A stretch of 64,000 bases of DNA from positions 667,341 to 731,340 of the forward strand of contig NZ_DAIRVK010000001.1 of the NCBI RefSeq assembly GCF_036802865.1, in the 5' to 3' direction. This document shows positions 3,169 through 10,305 of this stretch, one piece after another. The stretch's first letter is position 1. Every line of letters begins with the position of its first letter. The translations under genes were made by a program, and so were the position numbers. Below the pieces are notes generated by a model. The model was not told the origin of the DNA, searched no databases, and worked only from the letters and a program-made list of their open reading frames with translations. The DNA is from Sulfurospirillum sp. Lineage in GTDB: Bacteria; Campylobacterota; Campylobacteria; Campylobacterales; Sulfurospirillaceae.

Positions 3169-5025
3169 ATGTTTACCAATCTCACCATTAAAGCACGTAA
3201 TATTATTTTGGCATGCGTTGTCATTCTAGGACTCACGGCTATTCATACGACTGCAAAAATTTTTAACGACAAAGAAAAAAAACTTTTGAATATTAGGATG
3301 GATATTACCTCTTTAAAAGAAGAGATATTGACGTTGCGAAAAAATGAAAAAGATTTTTTGATGCGCAATGATCTTAAATACGAAAAAGCACTTTTAGAAT
3401 CTGCTACTAAACTCTCAGAACGACTTCAATTAATCTCTAAAACAGCAGAGACTCAAAAAATAAAAACATCGGAGTTAGTCCGTTTAGAAGAAGTTCTTCA
3501 CGCGTATGTTACTGTTTTTAATGAAGTTGTCGCCCAAAAAAAGAGAATAGGACTTACGCCTGAAGAGGGACTTGAAGGAGCGATGCGTCAAGCAATTCAT
3601 GAAGCAGAAAATGGATTTAAAGAGCTCAAAGATTATAAAATGCAAACATTCATGCTGACCCTTCGTCGTAATGAAAAAGATTTTATGTTACGTCTTGCTC
3701 CAAAGTATGCACAAGAACATCGTGCCAACTATGAAAAAACAGTGGCATATGTTCAAAACCATGAAGAACTGGCTTTTTCAGTGAAACTTTTAGAGAAATA
3801 CAACCAGAGTTTTGTGGAGTTTGTTAAGGCGTATGAAGTGTTGGGTTTAGATGAAAAAAGTGGACTCAATGGTAAACTGCGTGATACTGTGCATCAAACG
3901 GAAGCGTTGGTTTCCAAATCAATTCAATTATTGGATCAAGAAATTACATCAACGATTGAGACAACAAAAGTGATTTATGTTGCGGTTGGAAGCGTGGTTG
4001 TGGGCGTAGTATTATCTCTAATCGTGCTCATTATTCGCAGTGTTTTAATCCCTCTACGTGCTTTAACCCAAGCTATTGTCACCAATGAACGAGATCTGAC
4101 ACTCCGTTACAGTACGCCTTATAATGATGAACTTAAAGAGATTGCAGATGCCCTTAATGCCTTTATGGAACGTTTGAGACAGATTGTGTTAGGCGCCATA
4201 CATGCAAGCGATGAAAATGCTGCTGTCTCACATGAACTCTCTATGACATCCAATAACATTGGTAAGCGAGCCGAAGAAGAGAGCCGAATTGTGGAGCGTA
4301 CAACGCAAACGGGTAATCAAGCGCGCGATACGATTGATAGTTCCGTCGCAAACTCTCAAAAAGCACAAACAGAAATTACTCAGACAAATGAATCATTGAT
4401 GCAAACAAATCAAATTTTTGGTCTTTTAATCAATAGGATTGAACAAACAGGTGTTGTTGAAAGTGAGCTGCAGCAAAAAATGGTGACGCTTTCTCAAGAT
4501 GCCGAAAAAGTCAAAGATATTCTCCGTGTCATTAGTGATATTGCTGATCAGACCAATTTACTTGCACTCAATGCTGCCATTGAAGCAGCGCGGGCAGGGG
4601 AACATGGACGAGGGTTCGCGGTTGTCGCAGATGAGGTACGAAAATTGGCTGAACGAACTCAAAAAAGTTTAGTGGAGATACATAGTACGGTAAGCGTTAT
4701 TGTTCAATCTATTGCAAATTCAGCTGATCAGATGGCAAAAAATACAACGCTTTTTGAAGGACTGATTGTCCAATCGACTGAAGTTTCTCATAAAATTGAG
4801 ACTTCCGTGGGGCTAATGGGTAATGCCATTGGAGTGGTATCCCTTGCGACACATACGTCTGAAGAAACAGGACGTGAAATTAAAAAAATTGTTGATGAAA
4901 TTAATGAGATTAATCATATTACCTCCAGCAATGCTCGTGATATCGAAGAGATAGCTGGGGCGGCAGAGCATCTCCACAGTGTCACGCAAAAACTGAACGA
5001 CCAATTGCACTATTTTAAAGTTTAA
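3169..5025 (+). CDS. Methyl-accepting chemotaxis protein with a helical periplasmic sensor
   Basis: 618 aa. It has an N-terminal TM helix and a ~250-aa helical sensor with a duplicated motif ([18 protein letters not shown] / [19 protein letters not shown]). A second TM helix and a HAMP-like segment follow, then the MCP signalling hairpin [41 protein letters not shown]. Confidence 0.93.
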
Positions 5026-5039
5026 AAGAAGGAAAAATA

Positions 5040-5588
5040 ATGGTAAAAAAAGTAATTGTCCCTTTAGCTGAGGGATTTGAAGAGATTGAAGCATTAACGA
5101 TTGTTGATATTTTAAGACGTGCCAATGTGGATGTTACTATGGCCGCTTTAGCGTCTTTACCTGTAAAAGGAGCGCATGGCATTGTTGTGATGGCCGATGC
5201 ACTTTTGAAAGATTTAGAGGAGAATGACTTTGATATGATCGCCCTTCCTGGCGGTCTTCCTGGCGCTACCAATTTAGCAGCTGATGAGAATGTTCAAGCA
5301 CTTTTAAAAGCGTTTGATGTGAAAGGTAAAGCCATTGGGGCGATTTGTGCTGCTCCTTATGCGCTTAAAACAGCAGGTGTGCTCAAAAACAGCTATACCT
5401 GTTATCCAGGATTTCAGTCTAAAATTGGTCTTGAAGGGTATAACGTAAAGGATAAAGTAGTTATAGATGGCAATATAACGACCTCTCAAGGTCCAAGTAC
5501 CGCAATGTTGTTTGCATTATCTTTAGTCGAACAGTTGTGTTCAAAAAGTGTTGCTGACGCATTAGCAAAAGATTTGTTGTTACTATAA
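5040..5588 (+). CDS. DJ-1/PfpI (ThiJ/YajL-like) family protein
   Basis: 182 aa. It contains VLVPLAEGFEEIE, ALPGG and the nucleophile-elbow motif AIGAICAAP, typical of the DJ-1 family. Confidence 0.88.
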   Translation: MVKKVIVPLAEGFEEIEALTIVDILRRANVDVTMAALASLPVKGAHGIVVMADALLKDLEENDFDMIALPGGLPGATNLAADENVQALLKAFDVKGKAIGAICAAPYALKTAGVLKNSYTCYPGFQSKIGLEGYNVKDKVVIDGNITTSQGPSTAMLFALSLVEQLCSKSVADALAKDLLLL

Positions 5589-5615
5589 TAAGGCCATAAA
5601 ATAGGAGGTTGATGT

Positions 5616-7226
5616 ATGTTGTCAAAAATTAAAGTCAAACTGATTTTTTTATTTGTGATTTTATGTATCGGTTTTGGAATTATTGGGTTTGATACCATTA
5701 AAATGGGCTCTGACGCCAAAGGTGTTGCCGTGCGCTTTCAGCTTCTTCAACGTCTTGAAGCGGATGTGCTTTCATGTATGATGGATCTTCGAGGTTTTCA
5801 GCTTTTAGGCAATCCTAAAATGCTTGAACATTATGAACAAAGTTACCAAAAATCATCTCAAAATATTGATAAATTGGCAACTATATTTTTAAGTAAAGTC
5901 AATCAAGAAAAGATAGCGGAGATTAAAAAGAATTTTGAAGAATGGCATACACTCAATGCTCCTCGTGTAAAGATTTTAGCACAGTATGGCAAAGGGGTTA
6001 ATGATCCTACCTTTGAGCAACAGCACGGCTCAGAGCATGCAATGCTTACAAAATTAACGCAAGAGAGTGCCGTACGTTTCGATACAGTGGTCGAACAGTT
6101 ACAATCATTAACCCAAAGTGTTCAAAAAACAAATTTTGCACGTTTAGATACCGATGAGTGGGTCAATAAAATAGCACTAGTCGTTATTTTAATTATTGTC
6201 TCTATAGCGTTTATAATGATAGCACGAAGTATTCAACGCTCGGTATCCGAGGCACAAACAAAATGTGAACAAATGCGTCAAAGCAAAGCACTCAATATGT
6301 CATTGCAAATTTCTTCTCACGATGAGATCAGCGAGACGATGCACACGGTTAATGCTCTTTTATGCGAGATTACTGCTGCCATCGCACAAGCGAAAGACAA
6401 TGCCACTGAAAATGCTTCTGTTGCTGAAGAGCTTTCAAGTACGAGCCTTCAAATAGGCAAACGTGCAGAAGAAGAGTCGGCAGTTGTTAAACAAACCACA
6501 GAGGAAGCTGAACAAGTGGCTTTAGAGATAGAGCACACCAGTGCCGATGTAATAAGGGTGAAAGAGACCATTCATACCGCACAAAAGAGTCTTTTGTTAG
6601 CACAAGATTTGTTGAATCAGACTATTACGCAACTAGACGATACTGTGCATGCTGAATCAAACATCAATGACCGCCTCAATCAACTTTCCAACGATACCGA
6701 TCAAGTCAAAAATGTTTTAGAAGTGATCAGCGATATTGCAGAACAAACCAATTTACTTGCCCTTAATGCCGCTATCGAAGCAGCGCGTGCGGGTGAACAT
6801 GGCAGAGGGTTTGCCGTTGTGGCTGATGAGGTCCGAAAACTGGCGGAGCGGACACAAAAAAGCTTGGTAGAAACCAATGCAACGATTAACGTCATTGTTC
6901 AATCCATACAAGACATTTGTGGACAGATGAACCATAACGCAAAACGCATCCATGAGCTAGGCGAATTTTCCGTGAAAGTGAGTACACAAACTGGTGACGC
7001 GGTCAGTTTATTGGAAGAGACAGTGAGTGCAACGGATGATGTTGTACTTAAGGCATCTCATAATGTTGAGCGCATTAACACCGCCGTCATTCAAAAAATC
7101 GAAGAGATCAATAGCTTATCAAGCTCCAACGCCAGAAGTGTAGAAGAGATCGCAAGTGCAGCGGAACATTTGGCACGTTTATCGGAAAGTTTGAGTGCAA
7201 CATTGGCGCAGTTTAAAACCGCGTAA
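5616..7226 (+). CDS. Methyl-accepting chemotaxis protein with a CHASE3-like sensor
   Basis: 536 aa. TM helix, then [20 protein letters not shown] (CHASE3-like R-G-(F/Y)-x-L-x-G ... Y), a second TM helix, and the MCP hairpin [41 protein letters not shown]. Confidence 0.93.
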
Positions 7227-7228
7227 AG

Positions 7229-7242
7229 CTTTACATGTAAAG
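7229..7242. repeat. 14-bp perfect palindrome CTTTACATGTAAAG
   Basis: Read directly; it starts 3 nt after the MCP stop, in the convergent gap with the MutS-HNH gene. Confidence 0.85.
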
Positions 7243-7260
7243 AGCCAATGGGCTCTTTAC
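7237..7260. terminator. Bidirectional hairpin GTAAAGAGCC-aatg-GGCTCTTTAC
   Basis: A 10-bp perfect stem overlaps the palindrome on one side and the stop codon of the minus-strand gene (7257-7259) on the other. Both arms carry the CTTTAC/GTAAAG half-site. Confidence 0.55.
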
Positions 7261-10205
7261 TTCTCTTCGTAGTGGAGTTTGAGTCCTTCACTGCTCATGA
7301 CAAAACCACTAATCGTAATTTTGCCCTCATGCACTAGTTTATGGTGTTTCGCACAAAGCGGTATAAGGTTGTAGCGATGATTTTGGTGAAAATGGTCGAT
7401 GTTACCGTTTTCATCGGCACTCTCTTGTGCTTTAATGTGATGGACTTCATCGACATATTCATCACACAGTGCGCACTTGGAGAGGTAGAGGTTTTTGTTG
7501 TATTTGCTGCGTTTTTTCTGCTTTAAAAGCTCGACTTCACCCAGTTCTCCTGCAAGACTTCGACGGATATCATAAGCGGTTTTGATAAACTCTTTATCCA
7601 TGTGTAACGACTTGGCAAACTCCAAGCCATAAAGTGAACTACCACTGCCAATTTCGAGTTTTCGGTTATAAAGAAGTTTGTCATTTTCCTCATCGTAACT
7701 TACGCCTAAATGCAGGTAAATCACCTTTTTAAGTTCGCTAATAAGTGGCAAGTGGCTCAGTTGATGCAGATGGGTGGCAAAGACAAAGAAAGAGCCTAAT
7801 GAGTGCATCTTGGTAATGGCACTCGCAACAATGGCAAGAGCGGATTCGGTTTCTGTTCCATGACTGATTTCATCGCCCAGTACGAGTGAAAACTCTGTGG
7901 TACGGTTAAAGATATTTTTGAGCTCCAACATTTCAACCGTAAAAGTTGAAAGCCCTTTGTAAAGGTTGTCATGGCTGATGATGCGCGTGAAAATTTTATC
8001 AAACAGGTTAAAACGAAGGCTTGCACACGGAACAAAAAAGCCTGCTTGTGCCATAATGACAGCAATACCAAGGCTTTTCATGAGTGAAGATTTACCACTC
8101 GAGTTGATGCCGTAAAGAAGGACACCTTGCACTTCATTGGCGCTGCAGGCTTCTAAGGTAACATGATCGTGGGTAATGTCAGCTGAGCAATGACCTAAGA
8201 AAATGTCATTAGGTATATAGATGCCATTTTCCTCACGAGACTCAATGAGCGGGTGACGAAGCCCAATCGCCTCGATAAAGCGTTTTTCTTCTTGCATTGG
8301 TAGAAGATCGGGTCTGGTGTAGTTGTAAAGTACGGCACATTTGGCATTGCTAAGAGCAACATCAAGTGTTCCAACAAAGGAGATAAGATGCTCTAAGGTG
8401 AGGGCATAATGGGTTTCGATCTTCTCTAGCATCTCATCATAACGTTGCTTCACTAAAGCAATCATTTGTAGGTTACTAAGTGTGATCTCTTGTGAAATTT
8501 CTTCAATCAAAGACGCTGAAATTTTCACGCTGTTTTTAAGATGCCTAAAGGTGAAATCTTTAAAGAAGTAGTGTTTGTCTCCGATGGTAATGAAGCTTTG
8601 CATGAGCTTCTCTTCAATGAGTGCAAAACGGTTTTTACTGATGGAGATGTAGTGACCCTCGCTCTCTAACCATTCGATGCTAAGCGTCGTGCGATTGCTC
8701 TCTTCAAACAGTGCTTCAATATGTTTTGAAATATGTTCAAGTGCACCAAAGCGTTCTTGTTTACTCTGTTCAATCTTGTCGATTTGTGGATAAACACCTC
8801 TTAGAAAAAGGTTCTCACTGATCTGATCTTTACGAAACTTCGCACAGACATCGAGTACAAACGTACTTTGAAGCATCTCTAAAAGTGCTTCGCTTTCATC
8901 AAAAAGATTTTTAGGTGTTGGTACTTTTTTAAGCTCAGCTTCTTTGAGAATACCGATGATCGCCTCAAGCGATGTACTGAGATAATCAAGCTCTAAAGGG
9001 TGCAATTTTTTAAGCGCAATACGCCTTAAAATGCGCTCTAAGTCATACACTTGTTTGAGTGCGATCTCAAATTTTTTATAGTCTTTGATCAGTTGGTTAC
9101 TGAGATCAAAACGCTCATTGAGTGTTTTAAGATCGCAAATAGGATTGAGCAAACGCTCTTTTAAAAGACGTTTTCCTATCGCGGTAGAGGTTTGGTCGAT
9201 GAGGTTTAACAGTGTCATCTCGGAGGGATTTTTAGAGATGATGTCGAGTTGTTCAAGGGCATTGTTACCGATGTAGAGATAACGACTGTTTCCGAGCAAA
9301 ATAGGGCGACTCATTTTCTCGATGATGTTGGCATCATGCTCGATGATAAAATCGCACAAAATAGCTAAGGATTCGCTCGCATACGGGTATCGCTCAATGT
9401 CGAGGTACTCGATAGGAGAGAGCAAGGAGCGAATAGCGTAAATGCGCCCAAAAAGTTCATTTTGATACGCCACTTTGAGACGTTCTTTGTTGATGCTATG
9501 CGCCACGCTTGGTGTAATTTCAAGATAGTTCTGCACCCACTCTTTGTCAATGCTTTCAGTGTTAAACGTAAGAACAAGTTCGCTGGTTTTATAGGTTTGC
9601 AAAAGATTGAAAATCTCATCTAACGCATAGGTTTTATCTTCTCTTGTGCCATGCACTTCGTTGATGATGGTTTTGCCTGTGGTGACATCAATCGCACTAT
9701 AACCTACAGAATAAATCTGGTGGTTGCAGTCAACTAACAACGAGACAAGATAATTTTCACTGGACTCGATGAGGTAGTCGAAGTTCGTACCGGGGCTTAT
9801 AATGTTGGAGATGTAACGCTTCACATGCGGCGGCTCACCTTTTTGGCGCACTAAAACGATGGTGTATTTTTTACTTTGTACTAAGCGTGCAAGGTAGCGA
9901 TCGAGTGAAACCGATGGGATGCCCGCTAATAGGGGGTTTTGCAAAGAGTTTTCTAAAATGGATTTATTTTTGCGGGTGAGTTGGATGTTAAGAAGTTCGC
10001 TGACCTCTTTGGCTTTGCCGATTTGATGGGTTTCATTGTTGACTTCATACGTTTCAAAAAAAGAGCCAATCTCCATAAAAACGATGGTGTTTTTACCATA
10101 TTTTTCTTCAAAAAAGAGCTGAAGATCGAAATAGATTTCGGTCAGTAATCTCTCTTTAGAACAGAGCATTTGCGCAATATTTTCTAGCATTCGTTTCGTT
10201 TCCAC
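7257..10205 (-). CDS. MutS-family DNA mismatch-binding ATPase fused to a C-terminal HNH endonuclease (MutS7-like)
   Basis: 982 aa.
- The N-terminus has a GSFFETYE segment resembling the MutS domain I Phe-x-Glu motif.
- Walker A is [15 protein letters not shown], Walker B is [12 protein letters not shown], and the FATHLHQL motif matches the MutS ABC ATPase.
- The last ~70 aa are [17 protein letters not shown]...[20 protein letters not shown], a Cys-flanked HNH motif.
- No Smr domain is visible. Confidence 0.85.
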
Positions 10206-10305
10206 CTCTATGATATGACTAGATTATAGCGCAGGAAAGCATAAAGTTTGGTTTGGTAAAAGCCGTTTTAAGGTACAATAAAAACACTTATTGTAAAGGA
10301 TAAAT

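Follow-up and report, generated by a model that had tools for sequence, protein, structure and literature searches.

A MutS7-type MutS–HNH fusion protein of Sulfurospirillum as a candidate initiator of mismatch repair in a phylum that generally lacks MutL

The window that we analysed, a 64,000-nucleotide stretch of a Sulfurospirillum genome, encodes a MutS-family ATPase that ends in an HNH nuclease domain. Taken together, our data support the idea, to which we assign a probability of roughly 0.6, that this protein is a member of the MutS7 subfamily and makes mismatch-triggered incisions. The gene is almost certainly a MutS7 gene, and the odds that the cellular role predicted from its sequence, mismatch-triggered incision for mutation avoidance, is correct are slightly better than even. 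It is an intact orthologue of an already described family in a known host clade and its architecture is not new; the original description of MutS7 already covered Epsilonproteobacteria (PMC3166940).

In a phylogenetic tree the protein was grouped with MutS7 of giant viruses (SH-aLRT 99), apart from MutS1 and far from the genome's own MutS2, in line with the initial annotation, which had called it MutS7-like. The MutS7 clade of this tree comprised 45 Campylobacterota, giant-virus and unnamed sequences, including one from a giant-virus contig of 1,259,197 bp, with two MutS1 proteins and one MutS2 as outgroups; octocoral sequences were left out. The gene tree follows taxonomy, and the gene is probably a resident, vertically inherited one of this Sulfurospirillum species. 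Three other identities were considered and rejected. MutS1 models span residues 38–880 with scores under their cut-offs (388.9 vs 480 bits for NF003810 and 292.5 vs 641.7 bits for TIGR01070), and the genome has no MutL. MutS2 proteins lack domain I, which is present here; there was also no Smr match, the TIGR01069 score was 120 vs 400 bits, and a separate gene of the genome encodes a MutS2-Smr protein of 733 aa. For plant-type MSH1 there was no GIY-YIG match, and the C-terminus is HNH.

The gene lies in a single uninterrupted open reading frame on the minus strand (7257..10205), which would encode 982 aa if translation started at the GTG at 10205. This is the frame given by the initial annotation, and it is intact, but the true start is most likely the ATG at 10190, with a predicted product of 977 aa. 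The ATG is favoured because the GTG is enclosed by a Shine-Dalgarno-like motif (AGAGGTGGA, 10209..10201) and because close homologues are nearly all 975–978 aa long, with the alignment beginning at residue 6 of the 982-aa frame. The ATG is downstream of the motif, 10 nt from its end.

The gene had also been credited with its own promoter and terminator hairpin. Both the hairpin and a TATAAT box exist (Table 1), yet a generic sigma-70 scan did not call the TATAAT at 10228..10223, and promoter-like sites were not in excess in that intergenic region. The hairpin lies between MutS7 and a convergent chemoreceptor gene that ends at 7226. Because a T-rich run follows it on the plus strand alone, with no T tract on the minus strand from which MutS7 is read, the hairpin suits the chemoreceptor gene better as a terminator than it does MutS7.

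Table 1. Features of the MutS7 gene and its flanks, with positions in the window.
Feature	Position	Strand	Evidence and remarks
TATAAT, -10-like box	10223..10228	-	Inferred promoter only; sequence reading; 100-bp divergent intergenic region
Five surplus codons of the 982-aa frame (GTG at 10205)	10191..10205	-	Probably 5' UTR; overlaps the ribosome-binding site
MutS7 gene, likeliest coding sequence (977 aa plus stop)	7257..10190	-	ATG at 10190; reading of the frame, Shine-Dalgarno spacing, homologue lengths
MutS domain I, mismatch-binding	9780..10097	-	Pfam MutS_I, E 1.5e-10, 41.7 bits vs cut-off 20.6
Phe-Phe-Glu of GSFFETYE, Phe-x-Glu wedge	10053..10061	-	F44/E46 (977-aa scheme); F49/E51 (982-aa scheme)
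Connector, MutS domain II-like	9519..9755	-	Pfam MutS_II below threshold, 18.2 vs 25 bits; superposition of model on E. coli MutS
MutS domain III (core/levers)	8343..9263	-	Pfam MutS_III, E 3.1e-28, 99.9 bits vs 34.1; residues 315-621
MutS domain V, ABC-type ATPase and dimerising helix-turn-helix	7554..8120	-	Pfam MutS_V, E 4.8e-42, 144.5 bits vs 30.2
Walker A, GINSSGKS	8088..8111	-	Aligns with GPNMGGKS of MutS1; N696, G699 and K700 invariant (88 homologues)
Walker B region	7851..7880	-	Aligns with MDEIGRGTS of MutS1; D773 and E774 invariant (88 homologues)
ATPase-site motif FATHLHQL, with conserved His	7758..7781	-	Aligns with FATHYFEL; H807 invariant (88 homologues)
Linker from domain V to HNH, with conserved motif	7476..7550	-	Dip in pLDDT at residues 881-890, down to 57
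HNH core, CCCH zinc finger	7329..7475	-	C906-x2-C909...H917-H918...N937...N941-L942...C946-x2-H949-H950...H954
Conserved C-terminal beta-hairpin past the HNH core	7263..7319	-	I-x-I-x-G-F/Y-x-x-S/T-x-x-G-x-x-L
Hairpin, 10-bp stem, between convergent genes; shares bases with the MutS7 stop codon	7237..7260	.	T-rich tail on the plus strand only

The matches of the protein to MutS_V, MutS_III and MutS_I are far beyond chance. All three, of which MutS_I and MutS_V had been proposed for an HMM search, are well above the Pfam cut-offs, and the ABC ATPase recognised earlier from its motifs has complete Walker A and Walker B sequences. Every motif string quoted at that time was found in the translation. 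A motif-by-motif alignment with two MutS1 proteins holds throughout. In it, GSFFE of the segment first read as Phe-x-Glu-like aligns with GDFYE, and among 88 homologues with identity down to 32%, F44 is invariant and E46 is conserved in at least 90%.

An AlphaFold model of the full protein (pLDDT 88.3) matched mismatch-bound E. coli MutS over approximately 885 columns with a TM-score of 0.82–0.87 normalised to the target. MutS7 has been described as lacking MutS domains II and IV (PMC3166940). The Pfam result agrees with that description, with domain II below threshold and domain IV not found in the scan of the protein; the model and the alignment with MutS1 cover both regions. A divergent insert resembling the clamp (domain IV) lies inside domain III at about residues 500–560, where the sequence aligns with MutS1, the model shows strands (E504-558) and the Foldseek coverage agrees. 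Since almost all of E. coli MutS is covered by the superposed model, and MutS1 can be aligned across both regions, the connector and clamp look present but divergent.

At the C-terminus, a conserved basic linker and a zinc-finger HNH domain with all the catalytic residues stand where MutS1 has its tetramerisation/partner region. When the whole protein was scanned, Pfam HNH_2 was below threshold (17.9 vs 21 bits); when the C-terminal 94 aa were scanned alone, the same family scored 22.8 bits, above the gathering score of 21. PF01844 (HNH) was matched in 34 of 58 family members. In the PDB, a profile of the domain hit IscB and Cap5 through their HNH domains, and a 3D search gave weak matches only. 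The model of the domain (pLDDT 91.6) has a beta-beta-alpha core, and C906, C909, H917, H918, N941, C946 and H950 are invariant among the 88 homologues. The profile check on the isolated domain and the invariant His and Asn residues thus bear out the C-terminal HNH that the initial annotation had read. The motif in the linker is kept across 110 Campylobacterota orthologues; in 58 sequences, viruses among them, the Ser of S-x-Y-N never varies, and its Tyr and Asn are each conserved to at least 90%. We also looked past domain V for a motif that would bind the beta clamp and found none that was recognisable. What lies there is a conserved helix, E-V/L-E-L-L, with a basic patch behind it, and we do not claim it as one.

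MutL, MutH and NucS are all absent from this genome, which is 99.99% complete. Across the phylum, MutL was present in one of the 301 Campylobacterota genomes sampled and absent from the other 300, in keeping with the earlier statement that Campylobacterota generally lack MutL and MutH. A full-length MutS7 orthologue was found in 72 of the 301 genomes, representing 28 of 57 genera, and in every Sulfurospirillum genome sampled. Here the gene is single copy and its setting is a housekeeping one, with chemoreceptors, DJ-1/PfpI, DUF2721, a CvfB-like S1 protein and a flavoprotein as neighbours. Comparison of 12 loci showed that gene order is conserved within Sulfurospirillum only, and no helicase, exonuclease or other partner recurred across genera.

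Because our literature search returned no experimental paper, biochemical or genetic, on the activity of MutS7 or mtMutS, which agrees with the initial annotation's view that MutS7 biochemistry is essentially uncharacterised, we infer mismatch binding and cutting by homology alone. In the mechanism that we propose, a MutS7 homodimer would scan DNA until the Phe of one subunit stacks onto a mismatched or looped-out base. ATP binding would then shift the dimer into a clamp state, and the tethered HNH would cut near the mismatch, taking the place of the recruitment of MutL (and MutH) in a phylum without MutL. Resection would then fall to a helicase and an exonuclease, and resynthesis to a polymerase and a ligase. 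No strand-discrimination device is evident, there being neither a MutH nor a recognisable clamp-binding motif.

Some indication of such a role comes from homopolymer runs. The median number of G9 windows was 1 in MutS7-positive genomes vs 40 in MutS7-negative genomes, a contrast that was carried by three families (f2, f3 and f6). MutS7-negative genomes within MutS7-rich families also had few G runs (0–9), and one large MutS7-negative genus had a median of 6. Because the contrast originates in three families and counts are low in some MutS7-negative groups, it may reflect lifestyle or phylogeny. The scarcity of G runs where MutS7 is present is thus suggestive, fitting repair of slippage loops and being confounded by phylogeny. 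A broader proposal, which we offer tentatively, is that MutS7 is the sole mismatch-repair system of free-living Campylobacterota, a one-polypeptide, MutS1-like system of five domains with the tethered HNH replacing MutL and MutH, and that its absence in Campylobacter- and Helicobacter-type lineages let long G/C runs (phase-variable contingency loci) persist.

MutS7 might instead act mainly on recombination, reading mismatches in heteroduplex joints with diverged DNA (D-loops, strand-exchange intermediates) and cutting or dismantling them, thereby limiting homeologous recombination and the uptake of foreign DNA. The literature does tie MutS–nuclease fusions to recombination control. Plant MSH1 (MutS with GIY-YIG), for which both suppression of ectopic recombination and a mismatch-repair function are discussed, has mutants that are rearranged between short repeats, and a passage of PMC3200294 describes MutS2-Smr as an anti-recombination protein. 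A nuclease tethered in cis with no evident strand signal would also suit the destruction of intermediates better than directed repair. However, this genome already has a MutS2-Smr, and MutS7 keeps domain I and the conserved F44 and E46 of Phe-x-Glu, a hallmark of base-mismatch reading that is absent in MutS2. The very low number of long G runs in MutS7-positive genomes is what slippage repair predicts, although this signal is confounded as described above. The two roles are also not mutually exclusive, as MutS1 performs both. Overall, we consider it unlikely that control of recombination is the main function.

Another way in which a mismatch could be handled is by a double-strand break, with one cut made by each HNH of the dimer, followed by accurate repair from the sister copy by homologous recombination, so that strand discrimination is needless. 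With this, the strand-choice problem disappears; the dimer would bear two nuclease domains on linkers that the dip in pLDDT suggests are flexible, and the same model has been proposed in the literature for plant MSH1. Against it, the asymmetric binding of mismatches by MutS dimers would favour a single cut, and HNH domains of other enzymes are often nickases. Overall, we consider this outcome rather improbable.

It is very improbable that the gene serves selfish ends or defence, as a homing-type nuclease with an HNH domain or as an anti-phage ATPase–nuclease, and not repair. Homing endonucleases and defence effectors do often carry HNH domains, Cap5 of CBASS is among the nearest PDB sequence matches, and giant viruses have the family too. 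Against this, PADLOC gave only marginal P-loop/HNH noise (E of at least 0.001), for which reason the defence reading was dropped, and the neighbours do not form a defence island. The gene occurs once, in a housekeeping context where gene order is kept within the genus and no partner recurs across genera. Its tree mirrors taxonomy, all sampled Sulfurospirillum genomes carry it and its GC content resembles that of its surroundings.

Mismatch-triggered incision by MutS7 would make this family, which connects bacteria, giant viruses and coral mitochondria, a natural experiment in mismatch repair without MutL. A single chain able both to sense the mismatch and to cut would be the simplest initiator of mismatch repair so far known and would pose the question of strand choice in a clean system. 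The gene in the window is one more intact orthologue, and its product could be a useful, soluble-looking bacterial representative for biochemistry that seems to be unpublished.

Among known systems, the closest are the MutS7 proteins of other Campylobacterota, of which the protein in the window is, by alignment, an orthologue. These have equal length and domain order, 60–97% identity over the full length, and the same invariant motifs, linker and HNH zinc finger. Databases, in entries for Sulfurospirillum arcachonense and Hydrogenimonas thermophila among others, call them by names that include 'MutS-related protein', 'DNA mismatch repair protein' and 'HNH endonuclease'. Sulfurimonas orthologues have an added acidic C-terminal tail of approximately 35 aa ending in ILLDDW, which the protein in the window lacks; otherwise there is no substantial difference within this group.

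MutS7 of giant viruses (Mimiviridae-type, with many GVMAG contigs and a 1.26-Mb genome) has 30–37% identity over residues ~15–975, including the HNH. A search of viral contigs with a single sequence gave no match, and a search with an alignment gave 584 relatives. The viral proteins share S-x-Y-N and the pattern C-x2-C...HH...N...C-x2-C/H-H. They differ in often having a second C-x2-C in place of C-x2-H, in longer zinc-finger inserts, in tails of 25–170 aa past the HNH motif (about 70–100 aa in many) and in being encoded by eukaryotic viruses. Octocoral mtMutS, a member of the MutS7 clade, is described as having domains I, III and V and an HNH (PMC3166940, PMC8438181); the likeness in architecture is by description only, and the gene is in an animal mitochondrial genome.

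More distant systems share parts of this plan. MutS1 of E. coli and Thermus has in common with the protein in the window the fold of approximately 800 residues, Phe-x-Glu, Walker A and B and the STF-x-VEM motif. By contrast, identity is only about 22%, the C-terminal domain in the window is an HNH instead, and the genome has no MutL or MutH partner. MutS2 also joins a MutS ATPase to a C-terminal nuclease domain, which is Smr instead of HNH, and is far off in the tree. Plant-type MSH1, which giant viruses and a few bacteria also have, resembles MutS7 in joining a mismatch-reading MutS body to a C-terminal nuclease, but the nuclease is GIY-YIG, not HNH, and MSH1 belongs to a separate MutS lineage.

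As published, a MutS7 protein combines MutS domains I, III and V with an HNH domain and clusters with sequences from viruses and epsilonproteobacteria (PMC3166940; PMC8438181), and the predicted protein studied here fits this definition as judged from its sequence, in agreement with the initial annotation. A Pfam scan of the whole protein returned MutS_I (1.5e-10), MutS_III (3.1e-28) and MutS_V (4.8e-42); MutS_II was below threshold and MutS_IV gave no match. The NCBIfam MutS1 models span residues 38-880 (977-aa numbering) yet score under their cut-offs, and the score of the MutS2 model is far lower. We also placed 48 sequences in a quick maximum-likelihood tree, with a pair of MutS1 proteins and the resident MutS2 as outgroups. 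Campylobacterota, giant-virus and further sequences formed one clade (SH-aLRT 99) with the outgroups branching outside it, so that the protein grouped with giant-virus MutS7 and not with MutS2. The bacterial part of the clade tracks taxonomy, with the window protein in the Sulfurospirillaceae group. The closest genomes are Sulfurospirillum (88-97% identity), and full-length relatives on giant-virus contigs, HNH domain included, are 30-37% identical; one is encoded by a 1,259,197-bp giant-virus genome. The family and its occurrence in Campylobacterota are already known.

The C-terminus had been proposed to be an HNH nuclease, and profile searches bear this out. HNH_2 scored 17.9 bits in the whole-protein scan, below the cut-off of 21, and 22.8 bits with the last 94 residues alone; among 58 family members, 34 matched PF01844 HNH and 32 matched HNH_2. 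Searched against PDB sequences, a profile of the domain aligned motif for motif with the HNH domains of two proteins, IscB (E 0.003) and Cap5 (E 0.004). About 135 of the top 150 cluster representatives carry the pattern C-x2-C...HH...N...N-L...C-x2-[CH]-H, and so do the 98 distinct C-terminal sequences from Campylobacterota and giant-virus loci. When the protein was aligned with MutS1 from Shewanella and a Calditrichaceae bacterium, GSFFETYE aligned with GDFYELFY, GINSSGKSS with GPNMGGKST, STFTVEM with STFMVEM, GDEISHGTE with MDEIGRGTS and FATHLHQL with FATHYFEL. In an alignment of 88 sequences with identity down to 32%, F44, N696, G699, K700, D773, E774 and H807 are invariant, as are C906, C909, H917, H918, N941, L942, C946 and H950 of the HNH domain; conservation is 90% or higher at E46 and H954. 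The Phe-x-Glu mismatch-recognition segment noted earlier is retained.

The full-chain AlphaFold model was confident (pLDDT 88.3, pTM 0.80). Its top PDB matches were mismatch-bound E. coli MutS over approximately 885 columns (TM 0.82-0.87 by target length), meaning that nearly the whole of MutS1 is matched. This match, the MutS1 sequence alignment and the strand and helix pattern of residues 147-250 and 504-558 in the model suggest that the protein has both a connector and a clamp domain, in forms that have diverged too far for Pfam to recognise. MutS7 has been described as having no domains II and IV (PMC3166940). Because that description rested on domain scans, the combined evidence suggests a small correction to it. 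In the linker to HNH, pLDDT falls to 57 at residues 881-890; despite this, the Campylobacterota share a linker consensus, E-[LVI]-E-L-L-K-K-K-K-R-S-K-Y-N.

The single open frame at 7257..10205 on the minus strand (982 codons from GTG) is real, and all motif strings quoted in the initial annotation were found in its translation. GTG 10205 falls within the Shine-Dalgarno-like AGAGGTGGA, ATG 10190 lies 10 nt downstream of that motif, and nearly all of the closest 120 database homologues are 975-978 aa long with alignments starting at residue 6. By sequence, the gene most likely starts at this ATG and encodes 977 aa. Residue numbers of domains and motifs follow the 977-aa form; the frame from GTG adds 5. 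It diverges from a DUF2721 gene and converges with a CHASE3 chemoreceptor gene. The hairpin between the convergent genes exists, but because its T-rich tail is restricted to the plus strand it is better read as the terminator of the chemoreceptor gene, perhaps shared, than as MutS7's own. The adjoining group at window 3169-7226 (plus strand) has two methyl-accepting chemotaxis receptor genes (one HAMP, one CHASE3) flanking a DJ-1/PfpI gene; one receptor gene is absent from some close relatives.

Features of the MutS7 locus (window coordinates)
Feature	Position	Strand or place	Basis
MutS7 gene	7257..10190 (most likely)	-	ORF, SD spacing, homologue lengths
SD-like AGAGGTGGA	10209..10201	-	sequence reading
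TATAAT	10228..10223	-	sequence reading
Hairpin	7237..7260	between convergent genes	T-rich tail on + strand only

The MutS_V genes of the source genome (2.64 Mb, 99.99% complete) number exactly two: besides the gene studied here there is only a MutS2 of 733 aa, whose C-terminus is Smr-like (LDLHG...). No MutL, MutH or NucS was found in this genome. Among 301 Campylobacterota genomes from 57 genera, MutL occurred in one, a fragmented assembly, consistent with the earlier statement that the phylum generally lacks MutL/MutH. That match (G230:C138:73939-74211, in a 170-contig assembly) could stem from contamination or from a rare acquisition. Full-length MutS7 was present in 72 of the 301 genomes and 28 of the 57 genera. 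Three families, two of them large, had no copy in any sampled genome; most of their genomes are 1.4-2.2 Mb, and genome size and G-run content mark them as probably the Helicobacter- and Campylobacter-type families.

In the same 301 genomes we counted windows of nine G on both strands. MutS7-positive genomes had a median of 1 (five or fewer in 94%) versus 40 in MutS7-negative genomes; genus-level medians were 0.5 versus 61. This scarcity fits repair of slippage loops. It is suggestive and not evidence of cause, because three families carry the contrast, runs are also few (0-9) in MutS7-negative genomes within MutS7-rich families, and the median is 6 in one large genus that is MutS7-negative. 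Miller et al. (2007) reported that G:C tracts are lacking in Arcobacter butzleri, Sulfurimonas denitrificans and Wolinella and guessed at a working repair system, crediting MutS2 and DnaQ-like exonucleases; the MutS7 gene was unmentioned (PMC2147049).

Domains, motifs, tree and genome context together support the MutS-HNH (MutS7) interpretation, and from this anatomy we infer mismatch-triggered incision. A dimer held by domain V would read mismatches through Phe44 and Glu46, ATP would convert the dimer to a clamp, and the tethered HNH domain would incise in place of MutL/MutH. By analogy, MutS7 might instead guard against recombination, a role discussed for plant MSH1 and for MutS2 (PMC3200294). 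Another alternative is that a mismatch leads to a double-strand break and then recombination. A selfish or defence element is very unlikely; gene order in 12 loci is kept within Sulfurospirillum only, no neighbor is common to different genera and PADLOC defence models gave no match beyond marginal ones. The gene is a stand-alone one of housekeeping type. For mismatch-triggered incision, the interest lies in the biochemistry rather than in this locus; we found no experimental study of any MutS7 in the searchable literature, in line with the claim that its biochemistry is essentially uncharacterised.

Several relatives vary this architecture. One genus has a second, shorter paralogue (G285:C7:105696-106784, G174:C29:41642-42742, G231:C9:102090-103001) in open frames of 652-678 aa that match only residues ~600-976 (to 903 in G231); it has the ATPase and HNH with the mismatch-binding half missing. 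Distant homologues such as P0132, P0153 and P0252 are 1,300-1,411 aa, approximately 400 aa longer, with two separate matching stretches. Such a layout would be consistent with an intein-type insert like those reported in giant-virus MutS genes. A cluster with a 46% identical representative (P0122) includes a member named Candidatus Magasanikbacteria (CPR) in NCBI, so MutS7 seems to occur beyond Campylobacterota, viruses and corals. In the Sulfurospirillum cavolei NBRC 109482 draft, codon 419 of the orthologue (L021:6001-8946) is an in-frame TAG where the window protein has Leu, reflecting either a pseudogene in that strain or a sequencing error. Four Sulfurimonas/Sulfurimonadaceae orthologues (L019, L020, L023, L030) have an acidic C-terminal tail over the last ~35 codons with a conserved ILLDDW end. 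This could be a partner-binding tail; the Sulfurospirillum protein lacks it.
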